From Novosphingobium sp. 32-60-15 (GTDB lineage: Bacteria; Pseudomonadota; Alphaproteobacteria; Sphingomonadales; Sphingomonadaceae): a stretch of DNA of 64,000 bases. A model generated the notes under the pieces. The model ran no database searches. It was given only the letters and a program-made list of their open reading frames with translations, and was not told where the DNA came from. The DNA lies in the NCBI RefSeq assembly GCF_002280675.1, contig NZ_NCEN01000021.1:73299-137298 (forward strand), written 5' to 3'. Position numbers and translations under genes: made by a program. Positions 2,798 to 9,870 of this stretch are shown here, in pieces. Within the stretch, counting starts at the first letter, position 1. Every line of letters begins with the position of its first letter.

Positions 2798-3199
2798 ATG
2801 CTGCCGATGATCAACCGTCTGCGCCGCATGTTGCTTTTGCGCTACCTGCTCGCCAGTCTTGGCGCGCTGGCGGTGGATATGGGATCATTCCTTGCGCTGC
2901 TGGCGCTGGGGATTGCGCCTGTGCTTGCCTCGGCCGCAGGATATTCGCTGGGCATTGTGGCGCATTGGCTGCTTTCAAGCCGGGCGGTGTTTGCCGATAG
3001 TGTTGCCGAAGAGCGGGGCGCGCGGACGCGGCAAAAGGCGCTGTTCGTGGGGTCTGCGCTGATCGGCCTTGCGCTGACCACCCTGATCGTGGGGATGGGG
3101 ACAGCGCTGGGCATGGATTCGCGGGCGTCCAAAATCCTCGCCATCGCCGTCAGCTTTACCGCGACGTGGCTGCTGCGCAAACGGATTGTCTTTCAATGA
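2798..3199 (+). CDS. GtrA-family membrane protein (lipid-linked sugar translocase-like)
   Basis: About 133 aa, four hydrophobic helices, RYLLAS N-terminus and WLLRKRIVF C-terminus typical of GtrA; stop overlaps the next ATG (ATGA). Confidence 0.85.
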   Translation: MLPMINRLRRMLLLRYLLASLGALAVDMGSFLALLALGIAPVLASAAGYSLGIVAHWLLSSRAVFADSVAEERGARTRQKALFVGSALIGLALTTLIVGMGTALGMDSRASKILAIAVSFTATWLLRKRIVFQ

Positions 3200-4995
3200 G
3201 GGCGATTCAGGCCGGAGCGCCTTTCACCAAAGACCGCGCCAAAACGCCCGTTGTTGCGGTGCTGCTGCTGTGGGCTGTCACGTCTGTATTGATGATGGTG
3301 GCGATGCGCGGGAGCATTGGTCCTACCGGGTTCATGGATGCTGACGATGCCTTGCGTATGCAGCAGGTCCGCGATCTGCTGAACGGGCAGGGCTGGTTTG
3401 ATCTTCACCAGTATCGCATTGCCCCGCCCGATGGAGTGGCGATGCACTGGACGCGCATCGTGGATATCCCGCTGGCCGTGGTCATCCTGCTGTTCCGCCC
3501 GTTTCTGGGGCAGGCGCAGGCCGAGATCATGGCCATTGTGCTGGTGCCGTTGCTGACTTTGGCTTCGGCCATGCTGCTGAGCGCGCGTCTGGCCGCGCGC
3601 CAGTTTGGCACATTATCGGGCATTATTGCCGCGCAAATGGTGGTTGCCGCCATTCCTGCCTCTATCCGCATGATGCCGCTGACGATTGATCACCACGGCT
3701 GGCAATTCGTCCTCGCGCTTGTCGCGCTGAACGGCATGGCCTCGCGCGGGGAGCGTGTGGGCGGGGCTGTTGCCGGGTTGGCGCTGGCGCTGGCTTTGGC
3801 GATTTCGCTGGAATCACTGCCTTTGGCGATCATCTTTGCCGGGGTTTGCACCTTGCGCCTGTTGCGCGGACAGCGCGAGTGGCTGGGCGCTTACATGGCC
3901 AGTCTCGGCCTGGCGAGCGCGGTCCTTTTCCTGCTGACGCGCGGGCTGTCAGACCTTGCCGATCACTGCGATGCCGTTTCGCCGGTGCATGTGATGGTCC
4001 TGTTGTGGAGCGCGGGTTGCTGTTGTTTGCTGCTGCCGCGCCTGCGCCGTCGGCCTCCGGCGTTAAGCCTGATTGTGCTGGCCGGTGTCGGCCTTGGCGC
4101 GCTGGCGCTGATGGCAGCGCGCGCGCCGCAATGTGTGGGATTGGACGCGTTTGCCGCGCTTGATCCGCTGGTCAAGAACGTGTGGCTGGATTCGGTGTCC
4201 GAAGGTTTGCCCGTTTGGCGGCAAGTCCTGCTTGTCAGCGCCACTATGGTGCTGCTGCCATTGTTCGGCCTGATCGCCTGCTGGCGGTTGTGGCGTAATG
4301 CTCAGGATCAGGCGAGCCGCGATTGGTGGCTGGATATGGCGCTGCTGCTGGCGGGGGCGACCGTGGTCGGCCTGCTGGTCACGCGCGCTTCTGCGGTTTC
4401 CTGCCTTTTCGCGACGATCCCGGCGGCTTGGCAGTTCCGTGCGCAAGTTTCCGCGTGGCAGGCTGATCCTCTGGTCTTGCGCAGACTGGGGCGGATGGTG
4501 TTTCTGGTGGTACTTCTGGTGCCGGGCGTGGCCATTGGCCTTGCGGGAGAGGCTGTGATGCGCCAACCGGCCCGGTCAACGGCGATGGAGCGGTGCAAAC
4601 TTCCCGCGGCCCTGCCCGCGCTGGGCCGCGTGCCCACCACCATAATCCTGTCAGGGCTGGATCTGGGCCCGGCCATATTGGTCAACACCCCGCATACCGT
4701 GGTTGCCACTGCGCATCACCGCGCAAGCGATGCCATGCGCGATCTGCTCGTTGCGTTTCTGGGGCCAGACCACGGCGCCCGCGCCATCATGGCCCGTCGC
4801 GGCGCAACCATGGTGGTCATTTGCCCGACAGATGGCGAGGCGCAGCTCTATAGCCGCCTTGCGCCCGACGGCTTCATGGCCCACCTCATCGCGGGCAAAG
4901 CGACTGCGTGGCTGGAACCCATGCCTTTGGCCGCTTCCGGCGGGATCAGGATGTGGCGGGTGCGTCTTGCCCCGGTGCCCGATAGCGCGCGATAA
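3196..4995 (+). CDS. Multi-pass membrane protein, GT-C fold, STT3/AglB-like glycosyltransferase
   Basis: About 12 TM helices; acidic first loop (DADD); R-x6-DHH motif (IRMMPLTIDHHGWQ); C-terminal soluble domain with ILSGLDLGP in the position of VLSWWDYGH. Confidence 0.6.
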   Translation: MRAIQAGAPFTKDRAKTPVVAVLLLWAVTSVLMMVAMRGSIGPTGFMDADDALRMQQVRDLLNGQGWFDLHQYRIAPPDGVAMHWTRIVDIPLAVVILLFRPFLGQAQAEIMAIVLVPLLTLASAMLLSARLAARQFGTLSGIIAAQMVVAAIPASIRMMPLTIDHHGWQFVLALVALNGMASRGERVGGAVAGLALALALAISLESLPLAIIFAGVCTLRLLRGQREWLGAYMASLGLASAVLFLLTRGLSDLADHCDAVSPVHVMVLLWSAGCCCLLLPRLRRRPPALSLIVLAGVGLGALALMAARAPQCVGLDAFAALDPLVKNVWLDSVSEGLPVWRQVLLVSATMVLLPLFGLIACWRLWRNAQDQASRDWWLDMALLLAGATVVGLLVTRASAVSCLFATIPAAWQFRAQVSAWQADPLVLRRLGRMVFLVVLLVPGVAIGLAGEAVMRQPARSTAMERCKLPAALPALGRVPTTIILSGLDLGPAILVNTPHTVVATAHHRASDAMRDLLVAFLGPDHGARAIMARRGATMVVICPTDGEAQLYSRLAPDGFMAHLIAGKATAWLEPMPLAASGGIRMWRVRLAPVPDSAR

Positions 4996-6427
4996 ACGGG
5001 GCGAGGTGCCCGCGGTAAACATCGCCCAGGCCGATTGCGCCAGTGTTGATCGGTTCGCGCACCTGCATGACGCTGGCGGTGGATACGACGCGCCGGGTTT
5101 CGTGCGGGCGGAACACTTGCGGTTCTTCGGGCAAGTGGCAATGCGCAAGGATGCGGCGAATGTGGTCGTCAGGATGGCGCACCAGATCTTCGTAATCGAC
5201 GACAAGAATGCGGTCTGGAAACAGCGCGGTCCAGTGGCGGAAGAGTTCGTCCTCCAGCGTAAAGTGTTGCGCGATATCGGCAAGGTCCCAACTCCAATCG
5301 AGCCCTTGCAGGAAGTAGGTGCGAAAGGCTGACCATGCGCAGTCCACCGGATCACGCCGCAGCCAGATGATCGGCGCTTGTGGCAGCAGGGCGGCAATCA
5401 GACCCATGAACCGGCTGGTATTCAACGCCTTGTCAACAAAGCGGCCCTGTTTGCCAAAGCGTTCCTGGCCCAGATGAATGTAAAGGGCGGCAAGGTCATC
5501 GGCATGGCCGCCCGCAGCCAGATAGCTTGCCAGACCAGCGCCGCCACTGCCGGGCAAATCGCGCTGCACCACCGCCATGCGGCCCATTTCCTCGCCGCCG
5601 GTAACAGCAGAATGGCTGACGAGAATCTGTTCGACCAGCGTCGTGCCCGAACGGGGCAGGCCTGTGACAAAGATCGGCGCGCTGGTATCGATCGACACCC
5701 CGGCATTCACGCGATCAACGAAGGCCCGGTCGAAGCCATCGCGGCATTGCGCGGCATCCCGCACGTCGGCGGCGGCATCGTACGGACGCCATGTGCGGAC
5801 AAGCGCAGCACCTTGGGCAAAGTGGCGGAAGGCGACGTCCGGTTCCTTGCGGTCAAAATGGACCCGCCCGGCGGCATAGTGATAATGCGCGCGTTCAAGG
5901 GCGGGAGCGCCTGCCATAGCCGTTTCAGCGGCAAGAATGCGGTCGCCGACAGGATCGCCCGCCGTGCGCTTTCTGGCTGCGGAAAGGGAAAGCATGGCCT
6001 GCCCCAATTGCGGGTCAACATCCAGCGCTGCCAGAAGTTGCCGCTCGGACTCCTCCATTTGCCCCATGTTCACGGCAATTGTGCCGCGAATGTAATGGTG
6101 GCCCGATGGGGTGGGCACGCCGAAGGGCACGTGGCCCATGGTTTCCTGTGCGCGTTCCAGTTGCCCGGTCTGGGCCAGCATCGCAGCCTGAAGAAAGCGG
6201 GCCTGCGGATCGGCCGGATAATGGGCGACATAACGCGCCATCGCATCATTGGCGGCGGTATATTCGCCATTGGTTTGCATGACTTTGGCGATGGAATGCC
6301 AGTTTTTGCCAAGCGGCGGATTGCCTTCAAGCAAAGCGAAAGCAGCGGCATTGGCATCGCGCCTGTTGCGGCGTTCAAGGGCGCTGACGAAGGTGCGCAG
6401 CAACTGCGCGGCTTGCTCGGAAGTCAT
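4946..6427 (-). CDS. TPR-repeat sulfotransferase family protein
   Basis: N-terminal TPR-like helices; 5'-PSB loop GLPRSGTTLVEQIL; 3'-PB motif RRDPVDCAWS. Confidence 0.9.
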   Translation of the reverse strand: MTSEQAAQLLRTFVSALERRNRRDANAAAFALLEGNPPLGKNWHSIAKVMQTNGEYTAANDAMARYVAHYPADPQARFLQAAMLAQTGQLERAQETMGHVPFGVPTPSGHHYIRGTIAVNMGQMEESERQLLAALDVDPQLGQAMLSLSAARKRTAGDPVGDRILAAETAMAGAPALERAHYHYAAGRVHFDRKEPDVAFRHFAQGAALVRTWRPYDAAADVRDAAQCRDGFDRAFVDRVNAGVSIDTSAPIFVTGLPRSGTTLVEQILVSHSAVTGGEEMGRMAVVQRDLPGSGGAGLASYLAAGGHADDLAALYIHLGQERFGKQGRFVDKALNTSRFMGLIAALLPQAPIIWLRRDPVDCAWSAFRTYFLQGLDWSWDLADIAQHFTLEDELFRHWTALFPDRILVVDYEDLVRHPDDHIRRILAHCHLPEEPQVFRPHETRRVVSTASVMQVREPINTGAIGLGDVYRGHLAPFIARYRAPGQDAPATS

Positions 6428-6514: not shown

Positions 6515-9500
6515 TCAGAAATTGATGCCGAACTGGAAGCGGAAGAAGCGCGGCTGCTGGTACGACAGCGGGGTGCCATAGTCACCGCGTGGACGACCGT
6601 TGCCCTGCGTTCCCAATTCGCGAACGTCGAGTACGCCCTGCTGGTTGAAGACGTTGAACACGTCGACACGGAAGGTACCTTCAAACGCGTCGGTTGGCAG
6701 TGTGAATACGGCCGACACGTTGGTGAAGATGTTCCAGTCTGATTCAAGCTGCGAACCACGTGGCGTGAGCGAAAGGCTCGTTCCCGCTGCGTTGTTCTGG
6801 AATGCCTTGAATGCAGGGTTGGTGATCACGTTACCCGAGGAGTCCACGTTGCAGTAGAAACCTGCCGCGCCATATGCACCAGCGAATGGATCAACCGATA
6901 CTGGTACGCGACCGATGCAGCCAAACTTGCGTGGCGACACTGCTTGGAATTGCGTGCCAAGTGTTAGCCAATCGGCAATCTTGTAAGAGCCAAAGACCTT
7001 GAACTTGTGACGCGCGTCGCTTGGCAGGTAGCCATAGGCACCGTTGACGAGACCCGGTTGGTCGAATGCGGTGGTCAGACCCGAGTCGGTCTGGCTGTTA
7101 TCCGAACGGATACCGCCTTCGATGTTACCTTCAGACTTCGACCATGTGTACGAAGCAGAAAGGCTCCACGTGCCATCAAAGTCACGATCAAACGTGGCGG
7201 TGATTGCCTTGTAGGTACGACGTGCCCGCGGATAGCCAAGATCAGCTGCCGAGAAGTCGATCGTACGCAGAGTGGTTTCACCGTTGACCGGATCCGACAG
7301 AGTGATCTGCGCATCGCGACCTGGGTTTGCCAGCACATACTGGTGGAAGCCTGACCAGATCGGGCTACCCGATGCAGTCGTGCAATCAAGGCTGTTGTCG
7401 TCGCAATACTTGTTTACAGCAGCATCGATTGCAATGTCTTCGAGCGAGTCATTCAGCTTACGATACTGGCCGAACAGACCAACGCGAATGCCGTTGCCAA
7501 GCTGATGTTCGAAGCCGAGCACGAATTCGTCAACCGACTGCGGACGCAGGTTCTTCGAAACGGTAGCGATGGTTGGCGTTGCTACACCATCCGAGATGAT
7601 ATCGCAGTTGCGAACATTGGTGTCGGGGCATGGTGCCGCGTCAGCAAAGCCCAAAACCGGCGCACCAAGGATTGGAGTACCGTCAGGATTTACGCCCGAA
7701 ACAAGATTGTAGCGGGTGTAATCGAGTTCAGCACCGGCCAAACGAATGTTGGTGTTGGCAACGACAGGCAGGAAGTAACGGCCATAAGAACCGTAAATCT
7801 TCGTGCGCTTGTCACCGAACGGGTCGAATGTGGCCGCAAGGCGTGGCGCCCACTGGTTGCCCGACTTGTAGTATGTTTCGCCGTTCACGTTGTTGTTCGA
7901 GAAGCGGTCATTACGTACGCCAAGGTTCAGGACCAGACGGTTGTCGAACAGTGACCAGCTGTCTTGCAGGTAGAACGCTTCGTTGCGCGAGGTGAAAACA
8001 CCACCGTTAATGAAGGTACGGCCCGTGACATACAGCGTGTTTGGCGTTGTTACATATACGTCGCCCGAACCCGAGTTCACATATGTGTAAGCAACATTGC
8101 CGGTGTAGCTGCTGGTGGAGTCAGTCGTCAGGTTTTCGCGGTCGTAACCTGCCTTGAAGTGGTGCTCACCAAAGGCATTTACGAACAGTTCGACGTCACC
8201 ACGGTAGAATTCGCGGGTGTCGAGGTTGGTTTCGATACCTTGGATTGGGTTACCCGAAAGCGCAGGGCTGAAGTTGCCCGACGTGTCGCTGATGAACGGA
8301 TAGTTCGGCTGCGAAGAACCGGCAATGTATTGGCTCTTGTTCTTGCCGTAAGCGCCCGAAATCGTGAGGAAGTCGGTAAGCTGGCCGGTGTAGCGGCCTA
8401 CGAAGTTTTCGCCGCCTTCTTCGATGATGGCCGTGCTCTGATACGCGCCGCGAACAACGCCGGTGTCAACGCGCGAATCGTAGCCGCCGCCTGTGGTGTC
8501 GGTTACGCCAAACGAATCACGATAGGTCTGCTGCGTCGAGTTGAAGTAGGTAAACTCGAGGCGATGACCGTCAAATGGCAGGAAGTCGAGCTTGCCGCCG
8601 TAGAATGGCGAACGGATCTTGTCTTCAAGACGACGCAGGCCGGTGCTGTAGGGTTGGACCTGCAGACGGTCGAGCGGATCGGCGCTGGCTGGATCATCAA
8701 TCGTGGTGTTAGGATTGGTGGTCAACTGCGTATCACCAAACTTGTTATAGTTCGTTTGGTAGAAACCGTAGAAGAACAGTCGATCCTTGATGATTGGGCC
8801 GGAAAGGCTGAAAATTGCCTGAATCTGTTCGCGTGAATCTTGATCGTTCTGGTCGATCAGGGTGTTCTTGCGATCTTCTGTCAGGCCATCGGGCTGCCAG
8901 TTTACCAAGATGCCGCCGTGGAATTCGTTGCCGCCCGACTTGGTAACAGCGTTGATGAAGCCGCCGGTGAAGCGACCGAATTCAGCAGGAACGCCGCCGT
9001 TCTTGACTTCAACCGTCTGATAGAATTCGAAAGGAACCGTGACAGAGCCGAGGCCTTCACGGAAATCGGTGATGTTCAGTCCGTTGACGAAGAACGTGTT
9101 TTCTGAAACCGAACCGCCTGAAATTGAGGGCAAACTGCCGAATGCGCTGTCGCCCTGGCTGGTGCCGGGAGCAAGCAGAATGACCGAGGTAAGATCGCGT
9201 GCAACGGGGATACGCTCTGCAACGTCGGCGACCGAGATGACTTGGCCCGTGGTGGTGCGGTCAAAATCGGAAACGCGGATGCGCTGACCGGTAACGACGA
9301 TCGAGCCATCAGCCGATGCGGTGCCGGCGCCTGCTGGTGCAAGTCGGAACGAGTTGCCGCCTTCAGACTGCGTGATGCGGACTGCCGGATCGGTGAAGGT
9401 TGAATAACCGTCAGCCGTTACGGTGAAGGTGTATGTGCCCTGTGGCAGGGTGGGGATGCGGTAGTTGCCCGAAGAATCGGTTGTGACCGAGCGGGTAAAG

Positions 9501-9703
9501 CCCTGATCGTTCGACCGGATTTCAACAGTTGCGCCCGCAATCGGTGCGTCATCTTCGCCAACGATTTGGCCGCTCGCGGTAGCGTTTGTAAAATCTTGCG
9601 CCATTGCTGGTGCAACGAAGGCGGCTGAGGCGGCGAAGCCTGCAATTACCAGCGCCAGTGGCGCTGCGCTCGCTCGGAGCGCGGAGAAAGTTTTTTTGTT
9701 CAC
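6515..9703 (-). CDS. Oar-like TonB-dependent receptor with N-terminal carboxypeptidase-regulatory-like domain
   Basis: Signal peptide (...APAMAQ), prealbumin-like N-domain, IVVTG TonB-box region, plug, terminal F. GTG start at 9703 with AAGGGA upstream; the ORF-track extension to 9802 is probably spurious. Confidence 0.92.
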   Translation of the reverse strand: MNKKTFSALRASAAPLALVIAGFAASAAFVAPAMAQDFTNATASGQIVGEDDAPIAGATVEIRSNDQGFTRSVTTDSSGNYRIPTLPQGTYTFTVTADGYSTFTDPAVRITQSEGGNSFRLAPAGAGTASADGSIVVTGQRIRVSDFDRTTTGQVISVADVAERIPVARDLTSVILLAPGTSQGDSAFGSLPSISGGSVSENTFFVNGLNITDFREGLGSVTVPFEFYQTVEVKNGGVPAEFGRFTGGFINAVTKSGGNEFHGGILVNWQPDGLTEDRKNTLIDQNDQDSREQIQAIFSLSGPIIKDRLFFYGFYQTNYNKFGDTQLTTNPNTTIDDPASADPLDRLQVQPYSTGLRRLEDKIRSPFYGGKLDFLPFDGHRLEFTYFNSTQQTYRDSFGVTDTTGGGYDSRVDTGVVRGAYQSTAIIEEGGENFVGRYTGQLTDFLTISGAYGKNKSQYIAGSSQPNYPFISDTSGNFSPALSGNPIQGIETNLDTREFYRGDVELFVNAFGEHHFKAGYDRENLTTDSTSSYTGNVAYTYVNSGSGDVYVTTPNTLYVTGRTFINGGVFTSRNEAFYLQDSWSLFDNRLVLNLGVRNDRFSNNNVNGETYYKSGNQWAPRLAATFDPFGDKRTKIYGSYGRYFLPVVANTNIRLAGAELDYTRYNLVSGVNPDGTPILGAPVLGFADAAPCPDTNVRNCDIISDGVATPTIATVSKNLRPQSVDEFVLGFEHQLGNGIRVGLFGQYRKLNDSLEDIAIDAAVNKYCDDNSLDCTTASGSPIWSGFHQYVLANPGRDAQITLSDPVNGETTLRTIDFSAADLGYPRARRTYKAITATFDRDFDGTWSLSASYTWSKSEGNIEGGIRSDNSQTDSGLTTAFDQPGLVNGAYGYLPSDARHKFKVFGSYKIADWLTLGTQFQAVSPRKFGCIGRVPVSVDPFAGAYGAAGFYCNVDSSGNVITNPAFKAFQNNAAGTSLSLTPRGSQLESDWNIFTNVSAVFTLPTDAFEGTFRVDVFNVFNQQGVLDVRELGTQGNGRPRGDYGTPLSYQQPRFFRFQFGINF

Positions 9704-9870
9704 GTGTACAGTCCCTTGTTGTCCTGTCCGCCTGCGCCCCCGAAGATTGGCAACAAGCACTTTTCCGACCGCACCAGATGTTGTCTCGTTGTGGTTAAAC
9801 ATCGGTGCATCCGGAAAAAGATTTCTCCGTTTGGCGGATTTAGCCGGTCAGTTACATACAGGAATGAGAG

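Follow-up and report, generated by a model that had tools for sequence, protein, structure and literature searches.

An STT3/AglB-like membrane protein encoded with a UDP-galactopyranose mutase homolog and a GtrA-family protein in Novosphingobium

Gene content of the locus

We examined a 64,000-nucleotide stretch of the genome of Novosphingobium sp. 32-60-15 (contig NZ_NCEN01000021.1, positions 73,299 to 137,298; hereafter the window), in which an open reading frame (ORF) at 3196–4995 (+) encodes a 599-aa protein that belongs, by its structure, to the superfamily of the oligosaccharyltransferases (OSTs) STT3 and AglB. We refer to this product, which has a glycosyltransferase fold of type C, as the GT-C protein. 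The ATG start of its gene overlaps the stop codon of an upstream gtrA gene (ATGA) and, judged by this stop/start overlap, the two genes are translationally coupled. The original prediction, made from the DNA and its translated ORFs, had named a series of motifs in this ORF, and each was found where it had been placed: FMDADD (residues 46–51, nt 3331–3348), DHH (residues 165–167, nt 3688–3696), ILSGLDLGPAIL (residues 484–495, nt 4645–4680), TVVAT (residues 501–505), HHR (residues 507–509) and ARAIMARRGATMVVIC (residues 528–543), all on the + strand. Counts across 94 orthologs, each from a different species, argue against their having arisen by chance.

Three genes precede the GT-C gene in a likely operon. 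The first (434–1039, +) encodes a PilZ-domain protein of the cyclic di-GMP (c-di-GMP) receptor type (Pfam PilZ, E 2.9e-9), whose true start may be an internal Met near nt 536. It is followed by a flavoenzyme gene (1147–2778, +) and then by the gtrA gene (2798–3199, +), which encodes a small membrane protein of the GtrA family and putative polyprenyl-phosphate-sugar flippase (Pfam GtrA_DPMS_TM, E 1.2e-16). In its longest form the gtrA ORF begins at 2717, but translation probably starts from Met28 at 2798, immediately past the flavoenzyme stop codon. We then surveyed 81 related loci from the genomes of different species, mostly Sphingomonadales. The gtrA gene immediately preceded the GT-C gene in 72 of the 81 loci, and the flavoenzyme gene was present in 75, with 69–84% identity; identity of the GT-C proteins was lower (33–48%). 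A PilZ homolog stood upstream of the flavoenzyme gene in 39/81 loci, also in locus L001. The trio of gtrA, mutase-like and GT-C genes recurred in another gene order in distant alphaproteobacterial lineages, where the flavoenzyme was 39–54% identical. Genes for MsrB, an ABC-2 transporter, QueG and a P450, found downstream in ~33 loci, were considered as parts of the module and set aside as housekeeping synteny.

The flavoenzyme (543 aa) is a homolog of eukaryotic-type UDP-galactopyranose mutase (UGM). Its NCBIfam match, NF005545 (921 bits), is named 'hypothetical protein', and its score against TIGR00031 fell under the cut-off. A flavoenzyme profile matched the UGMs of Aspergillus fumigatus (AfUGM; E 3e-35) and Trypanosoma cruzi (E 1.8e-29) among sequences of the Protein Data Bank (PDB), and the best Foldseek matches to its AlphaFold 2 (AF2) model (mean predicted local distance difference test, pLDDT, 80) were likewise UGMs (TM-score 0.70–0.84), with protoporphyrinogen oxidases behind them. 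Nine AfUGM residues could be paired with the flavoenzyme (H63 with H76, R182 with R192, W315 with W339, Y317 with Y341, R327 with R351, Y419 with Y422, R447 with R452, Y453 with Y458 and N457 with N460), and all nine were invariant or nearly so in a 26-sequence alignment. In AfUGM we take these to be active-site residues, namely a His-loop, Arg and Tyr side chains binding the UDP diphosphate, and the R447/Y453/N457 set. From the UGM fold and the conserved active-site residues, we predict that the flavoenzyme is, very probably, a functional mutase interconverting the pyranose and furanose forms of a nucleotide sugar. The simplest guess for its product is UDP-galactofuranose (UDP-Galf).

Predicted fold and catalytic-site motifs

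The GT-C protein had no significant sequence match in Pfam, NCBIfam or, by phmmer, the PDB; a sub-threshold Pfam match to GGDEF_2 (E 0.0089) was taken as noise, and its nearest database relatives were all Novosphingobium entries named 'hypothetical protein'. Its AF2 model, built from an input with 34 homologs (mean pLDDT 89, predicted TM-score 0.90), consists of ~13 membrane helices and then a small alpha/beta domain. In a Foldseek search of the PDB with this model, ranks 1–14 were all STT3 chains or AglB of Archaeoglobus fulgidus (AfAglB) (E 1e-10 to 2e-8, query TM-score (TMq) 0.61–0.69), and PglB of Campylobacter lari occupied ranks 20–22 (E 4e-7 to 1e-6, TMq 0.51–0.55). Overall, OST catalytic subunits matched with a Foldseek probability of 1.00, E 1e-10 to 1e-6 and TMq 0.51–0.69. 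The C-mannosyltransferase DPY19 reached TMq 0.58–0.61; ArnT, AftA, Emb and ALG enzymes were far poorer (≤0.44), and transporters scored ~0.1. Since the best matches are STT3, AglB and PglB, the fold is GT-C and of the OST type, as the original prediction had claimed and had proposed to check with AlphaFold and Foldseek.

The closest overall structural match was eukaryotic STT3 (PDB 8AGC, 8PN9, 6S7T; TMq 0.63–0.69), from which the GT-C protein differs in being single-subunit, in a periplasmic domain of half the size, in its unconserved WWDYG and DK motifs and in an identity of only ~11–13%. The AfAglB proteins (AglB-S1 and -S2, ~590 aa, and AglB-L, PDB 3WAK and 7E9S; CAZy GT66) share its core of 13 transmembrane (TM) helices and match at E 2e-9 to 5e-9, yet with no significant sequence match (E 0.1). 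PglB (PDB 3RCE, 5OGL) is likewise a single-subunit bacterial STT3 homolog with the same motif order (Asp in external loop (EL) 1, D-x-D in EL2, Glu in EL5 and Arg in TM11), but it is a poorer match than STT3 or AglB, retains WWDYG and its MI motif, and is encoded in a pgl cluster for assembly of lipid-linked oligosaccharide (LLO).

OSTs have 13 TM helices, DXD motifs on EL1 and EL2, a TIXE/SVSE motif on EL5, and WWDYG, DGGK and DK/MI motifs in a C-terminal domain (PMC8342417). In AfAglB the metal ligands are D47, D161 and H163, the second DXD motif being Asp-His-His (161–163); E360 of TIAE participates at the site, and the donor phosphate has H81 and R426 in its vicinity (PMC8342417). We found corresponding elements, in the same order, in the GT-C protein. 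In EL1, a first DXD-type motif, D48-A-D50-D51 (3337–3348, +; D48 in 82/94, D50 in 93/94 and D51 in 90/94 orthologs), is the positional equivalent of AfAglB G-N-D47 (PMC8342417), and at the end of the same loop H84-W-x-R87 (3445–3456, +; H84 93/94, W85 92/94, R87 94/94) is a candidate donor-phosphate contact, probably equivalent to H81 by its position. The second DXD-type motif, D165-H166-H167 in EL2 (3688–3696, +; 94/94, 93/94 and 93/94), is identical to AfAglB Asp161-His-His163 (PMC8342417). Between TM9 and TM10, EL5 carries S333-V-S-E336 (4192–4203, +), a TIXE/SVSE-type motif (E336 94/94, V/I334 92/94, G337 79/94, P339 90/94) identical to the S-V-S-E of eukaryotic STT3. Finally, R397 between TM11 and TM12 (4384–4386, +; 94/94) is a candidate donor-phosphate ligand and presumptive positional analogue of AfAglB R426. 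E206 and D259 were also invariant (94/94 each). The GT-C protein thus appears to keep the metal and catalytic site of an OST (D50/D51, D165-H-H167 and E336) together with the candidate phosphate-binding residues H84 and R397, the equivalences being positional. It shares with AglB the EL1 acidic motif, the Asp-His-His form of the second DXD motif, the EL5 Glu and the His/Arg pair near the donor phosphate.

A topology of 13 TM helices with the N-terminus inside and the C-terminus outside is supported by the model and by the distribution of charge: across the 94 orthologs, Lys and Arg in short loops averaged 11.8 per 55 residues on the cytoplasmic side vs 3.3 per 31 on the periplasmic side, where they were mostly R163 and R397. 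In this topology EL1, EL2, EL5 and the C-terminal domain are periplasmic, and the conserved acidic residues therefore all lie on the periplasmic face. By topology and motif equivalence, and thus indirectly, this agrees with the demand of the original prediction that the acidic residues converge on one periplasmic site. Taken alone, the reading that the fold is GT-C of the STT3 type and that its catalytic site has been kept is in our view nearly certain.

One EL2 position sets the window protein apart from its family. The arginine conserved at residue 163 (90/94) is T163 here (nt 3682–3684) and Cys in a close relative. At residue 158 (nt 3667–3669) Arg is shared throughout the close Novosphingobium clade, and other orthologs have Gln. 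The R-x6-DHH pattern listed in the original prediction, R158...D165, is thus present in this protein, but its arginine is limited to the close clade; R158 may be a relocated version of the R163 arginine. The loss of R163, together with the name 'AcrB/AcrD/AcrF family protein' borne by a few UniRef relatives, would suit an explanation in which the product is no glycosyltransferase at all and serves as a transporter, a scaffold or a catalytically dead relic. We regard the name as spurious, and transporter folds scored ~0.1. Conservation of D165, E206, D259, E336, R397 and H508 in 94/94 orthologs argues for a working active site, and the gene is tightly kept in an operon with sugar-handling genes, which leaves a non-enzymatic role highly improbable.

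The WWDYG position and the C-terminal domain

After the membrane core, a periplasmic alpha/beta domain of ~135 residues (4588–4992, +) carries a pair of cysteines, C467 (93/94) and C543 (92/94). A profile of 46 GT-C family members was searched against PDB sequences, and the top match, a weak one, was 3vgp, the C-terminal domain of the short paralog AglB-S1 (E 0.1), followed by that of the other short paralog (3vu0, E 0.49). This search aligned the family with AglB over the C-terminal domain only; the TM region found no match. In the short A. fulgidus AglBs the C-terminal domain is a 'CC unit' alone (PMC3703281), and the domain of the GT-C protein, by its AF2 secondary structure and these weak profile matches, resembles this 'CC unit only' layout.

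The profile alignment paired lapLDiGP with MSWWDYGN, vvAtghHR with VVANNF, and earaiiarrgadyvvic with EAIKIAKKRGVRYVVTA, reproducing, at this weak E-value, the AglB alignment that the original prediction had proposed. Early in the periplasmic domain, the position of WWDYG is occupied by L488-D489-L-G491-P492 (4657–4671, +) and reads P-(L/I/F)-D-(I/L)-G across the 94 orthologs. The two Trp columns, 487 and 488, hold P in 72 orthologs and L, I or F in 80 (47, 17 and 16), and Trp in 0/94. The Asp and Gly persist (D489 86/94, G491 66/94) and are followed by P492 (87/94). The D-A-A-K of the AglB-S1 DK motif aligned, provisionally given the weak alignment, with D516-x-x-519, in which D516 is kept in 68/94 orthologs and residue 519 is A, R, E, L or D, with no conserved Lys. 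The OST motifs being near-invariant while both tryptophans and, provisionally, a conserved DK lysine are missing, we conclude that the catalytic and donor-phosphate half of an OST is kept and that the Ser/Thr(+2) pocket has lost both of its elements. This bears out the earlier description of the protein as an OST homolog that has lost its Ser/Thr-binding tryptophans.

Past the WWDYG position, the segment carries (T/S)-G-H-H-R, which can be set against DGGK and DNXTZNX[T/S] by position only. In the window protein this family-specific basic motif is T505-A-H507-H508-R509 (4708–4722, +); it follows the strand VVAT, aligns with VVANNF of AglB-S1 and is highly conserved (H508 94/94, R509 92/94, H/Y507 93/94). 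By analogy with the DGGK region it may take part in donor binding. Relative to AglB, then, the protein lacks the WWDYG tryptophans and the DK lysine and has gained a new invariant motif; it is also alphaproteobacterial, and it is encoded with a GtrA flippase and a UGM-type mutase, not with an agl oligosaccharide pathway.

Some loci carry tandem GT-C paralogs after gtrA (L002, 4038–5909 and 5941–7800; L077, 4157–5992 and 5989–7740). The tandem copies differ at the WWDYG position (LDTNP vs FDMAP), a difference that hints at acceptor diversification.

These results bear on whether the protein could be a true N-oligosaccharyltransferase, moving a preassembled oligosaccharide from a lipid-pyrophosphate carrier to Asn in a relaxed or different sequon. 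Retention of the full catalytic set (both DXD motifs, the TIXE/SVSE Glu and an Arg at the phosphate position) and of the Asp and Gly of WWDYG would suit such an enzyme, as would a PAP2-family phosphatase gene right after the GT-C gene in one distant trio-bearing lineage (L102, 6969–7943, −). However, both tryptophans and the DK/MI signature residue are gone, the operon supplies a GtrA flippase and just one sugar mutase in place of a pgl-like LLO assembly cluster or a Wzx/PglK flippase, and Pfam STT3 stays below threshold. We therefore do not call the protein an N-oligosaccharyltransferase, since it lacks the WWDYG and DK/MI features, and we judge this activity unlikely by a wide measure.

Proposed pathway and acceptor

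The gene content of the operon points to an undescribed periplasmic glycosylation system. The UGM-type flavoenzyme would convert a UDP-hexopyranose, most likely UDP-Galp, to the UDP-furanose; an unlinked polyprenyl-phosphate hexosyltransferase of glycosyltransferase family 2 (GT2) would load the sugar onto undecaprenyl phosphate; the co-translated GtrA protein would flip the lipid-linked sugar; and the STT3-like enzyme would move this single sugar to a periplasmic acceptor other than the classical N-X-S/T sequon, most probably on a protein. We infer the donor's identity, its single-sugar lipid-monophosphate form, the acceptor and the pathway as a whole from gene content. We give a probability of roughly 55% to the whole chain, in which a periplasm-facing STT3-family transferase receives a furanose (Galf being the probable one) on a polyprenyl-phosphate carrier and moves it onto a non-sequon acceptor that is probably a protein.

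Candidates for the loading step lie elsewhere in the genome, where two AglJ/ArnC-like GT2 proteins, each ending in TM segments, are encoded on separate contigs (C7, ~18.2–19.3 kb; C40, ~121.7–123 kb). Both resemble polyprenyl-phosphate hexose synthases of the AglJ, ArnC and PpgS types, one of them has a GtrA-like 4-TM tail, and either might load the carrier. Monophosphate-linked donors have precedents on the OST fold. Euryarchaeal AglB uses them (PMC8342417), and DPY19, whose STT3-like fold was among the Foldseek matches, has been solved with Dol-P-Man (PDB 7ZLG–7ZLI; GT98). DPY19 is also a functional precedent, taking a monosaccharide from a polyprenyl-monophosphate donor to protein side chains that are not the Asn of a sequon; it differs in being eukaryotic, in matching less well than STT3 or AglB, and in its chemistry, Trp C-mannosylation, to which our results on the GT-C protein do not point. 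Also among the closest known systems are those in which a furanose carried on a lipid phosphate is added by a GT-C enzyme in the periplasm, as in TfpW of Pseudomonas aeruginosa, which adds D-arabinofuranosyl to pilin (bioRxiv 10.1101/2020.04.19.049825), and in GtrABC-type and pentofuranose systems (PMC11194591). The TfpW and pentofuranose pathways derive their pentofuranose from phosphoribosyl pyrophosphate (PMC11194591), whereas the window operon has a UGM-type mutase as furanose source. The window GT-C protein is of the STT3 type, a candidate further difference from TfpW. As in a GtrABC-type system, a GtrA flippase is encoded beside the GT-C transferase, but the lipid-loading GT2 synthase lies outside the operon.

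The acceptor of the GT-C protein would, from its rewritten pocket, be non-canonical, as had been proposed. We lean towards a protein, since the closest folds are those of peptide-modifying enzymes, the EL5 motif, which in AglB makes pairing contacts with the peptide backbone (PMC8342417), is kept, and a sister clade is linked to Tad pilus genes. This last link came from relatives of the window gene. In two loci from different families a Flp pilin gene lies divergently, ~250–300 bp from the GT-C gene (L109, 7502–7720, −; L110, 7486–7671, −), and is followed by genes for prepilin peptidase, RcpC and secretin. Distant GT-C homologs in two further loci (L108 and L111) are likewise linked to Flp pilin/Tad genes. 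The RcpC gene lies 1.6–2.3 kb from the GT-C gene in 4 genomes of 3 families, and another locus (L097) unites the mutase-like and GT-C genes with a pair of TadE genes and one for T2SSF. RcpC was present in 26/32 GT-C-positive genomes vs 111/269 negative genomes (Fisher p 1.9e-5, uncorrected for phylogeny or genome size). Together this suggests Tad pilin glycosylation by the relatives of the window protein that form clade B of the family tree. The Tad-linked enzymes belong to clade B, and both clades have mutase-linked members. The window protein falls in a Sphingomonadales clade (clade A) that is mutase-linked and without Tad adjacency, so the pilin idea is a lead for the family and not a result for the window gene.

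A different acceptor could be imagined for the same set of genes. The GT-C protein might be the transferase component of a GtrABC-like system that modifies a glycosphingolipid head group, an exopolysaccharide or a periplasmic glucan, its STT3-like fold reflecting ancestry only. GtrA, a sugar-activating enzyme and a GT-C protein make up the canonical module of glycan decoration (PMC11194591; PMC13390465), and the Ser/Thr pocket for peptide is lost. The GT-C family is near-universal in the family of the window organism (15/16 sampled genomes), a group described as having glycosphingolipids in place of lipopolysaccharide (PMC11165598). In the Parasphingorhabdus loci the cluster also includes a membrane protein of the sulfatase / alkaline-phosphatase family (456 aa, membrane-anchored), inserted between the gtrA and GT-C genes (L061, 4598–5968). 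Set against this, the nearest structures (STT3, AglB, PglB and DPY19) all belong to peptide modifiers, with ArnT, AftA and Emb matching far worse; the backbone-pairing TIXE/SVSE motif is retained; relatives adjoin Flp pilin genes; and our literature search gave no furanose in sphingomonad glycolipids. We consider a glycan or glycolipid acceptor the main rival, credible but less likely than a protein.

Several observations weigh against transfer of a lipid-borne furanose to protein by an STT3-type enzyme. At the level of sequence, the link to STT3 is weak: the best match is E 0.1 to AglB-S1, Pfam STT3 (PF02516) does not match the window protein, and only 2/46 family members match it (best E 0.0038). 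The residue equivalences to AfAglB are based on order, loop location and spacing and not on measured superposition, and the window protein has T163 where the family has its arginine. No GT2 is encoded on the contig of the window, and no GtrB-like polyprenyl-phosphate sugar synthase in the operon. As to a protein acceptor, clade A lacks Tad adjacency, and in the window genome the Flp and RcpC genes lie on contigs other than that of the GT-C gene. The cryo-EM map of the Caulobacter Tad pilus has no glycan density (PMC10710030), and three-component systems of the GtrA type as a rule modify glycans or lipids and not proteins. We also found no acceptor motif common to the Flp pilins of the window genome and the pilins beside clade-B enzymes.

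The family is sizeable. HMMER searches of 1.8 billion cluster representatives returned 3778 matches at E ≤ 1e-3, each a representative at 50% identity, and 1032 at E ≤ 1e-30. A GT-C homolog was present in 31/254 sampled alphaproteobacterial genera (~12%) and, as noted above, in nearly all sampled Sphingomonadaceae; in a Pseudomonadota-wide sample, 4 of the 47 positive genomes lay outside Alphaproteobacteria. Three small alphaproteobacterial genomes (G023, G203 and G232; 0.9–1.4 Mb) had 2–4 separate matches to the GT-C model each, mostly partial and clustered on one contig. To our knowledge, STT3-type OSTs are regarded as universal in eukaryotes and archaea, and bacterial enzymes of this type (PglB) are thought to be limited mainly to Campylobacterota and some Desulfobacterota. 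Our literature search gave nothing relevant on the GT-C family, PRK07208, STT3-like proteins in Alphaproteobacteria or Galf in sphingomonads. Here, by comparison, is an alphaproteobacterial family with the OST fold and catalytic residues and a rewritten acceptor-reading pocket, whose operon adds a furanose mutase and a flippase of the GtrA family. Should the enzyme prove active, it would extend the known bacterial chemistry of the OST fold, offer a natural experiment in which sequon recognition is swapped and catalysis retained, and point to a furanose-containing glycoconjugate of the sphingomonad envelope that is not yet known. The family could also yield new enzymes for glycoengineering. Only tentatively do we join all of these elements into one proposal, that of a large unrecognised bacterial branch of STT3/AglB that would glycosylate proteins independently of a sequon with a single galactofuranose supplied through a eukaryotic-type UGM and GtrA, with Flp/Tad pilins as one target and a PilZ c-di-GMP receptor at the head of the sphingomonad operon.

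Two further genes lie downstream in the window. A convergent gene (4946–6427, −), which overlaps the 3′ end of the GT-C gene by ~50 nt, encodes a protein with TPR and sulfotransferase (Sulfotransfer_3) domains; because a homolog occurs in only 2/81 loci, adjoining the GT-C gene in one of these, it is probably unrelated to the module. Beyond it, a gene at 6515–9802 (−) encodes a 1095-aa outer-membrane beta-barrel protein that has an N-terminal CarboxypepD_reg domain and resembles TonB-dependent receptors.

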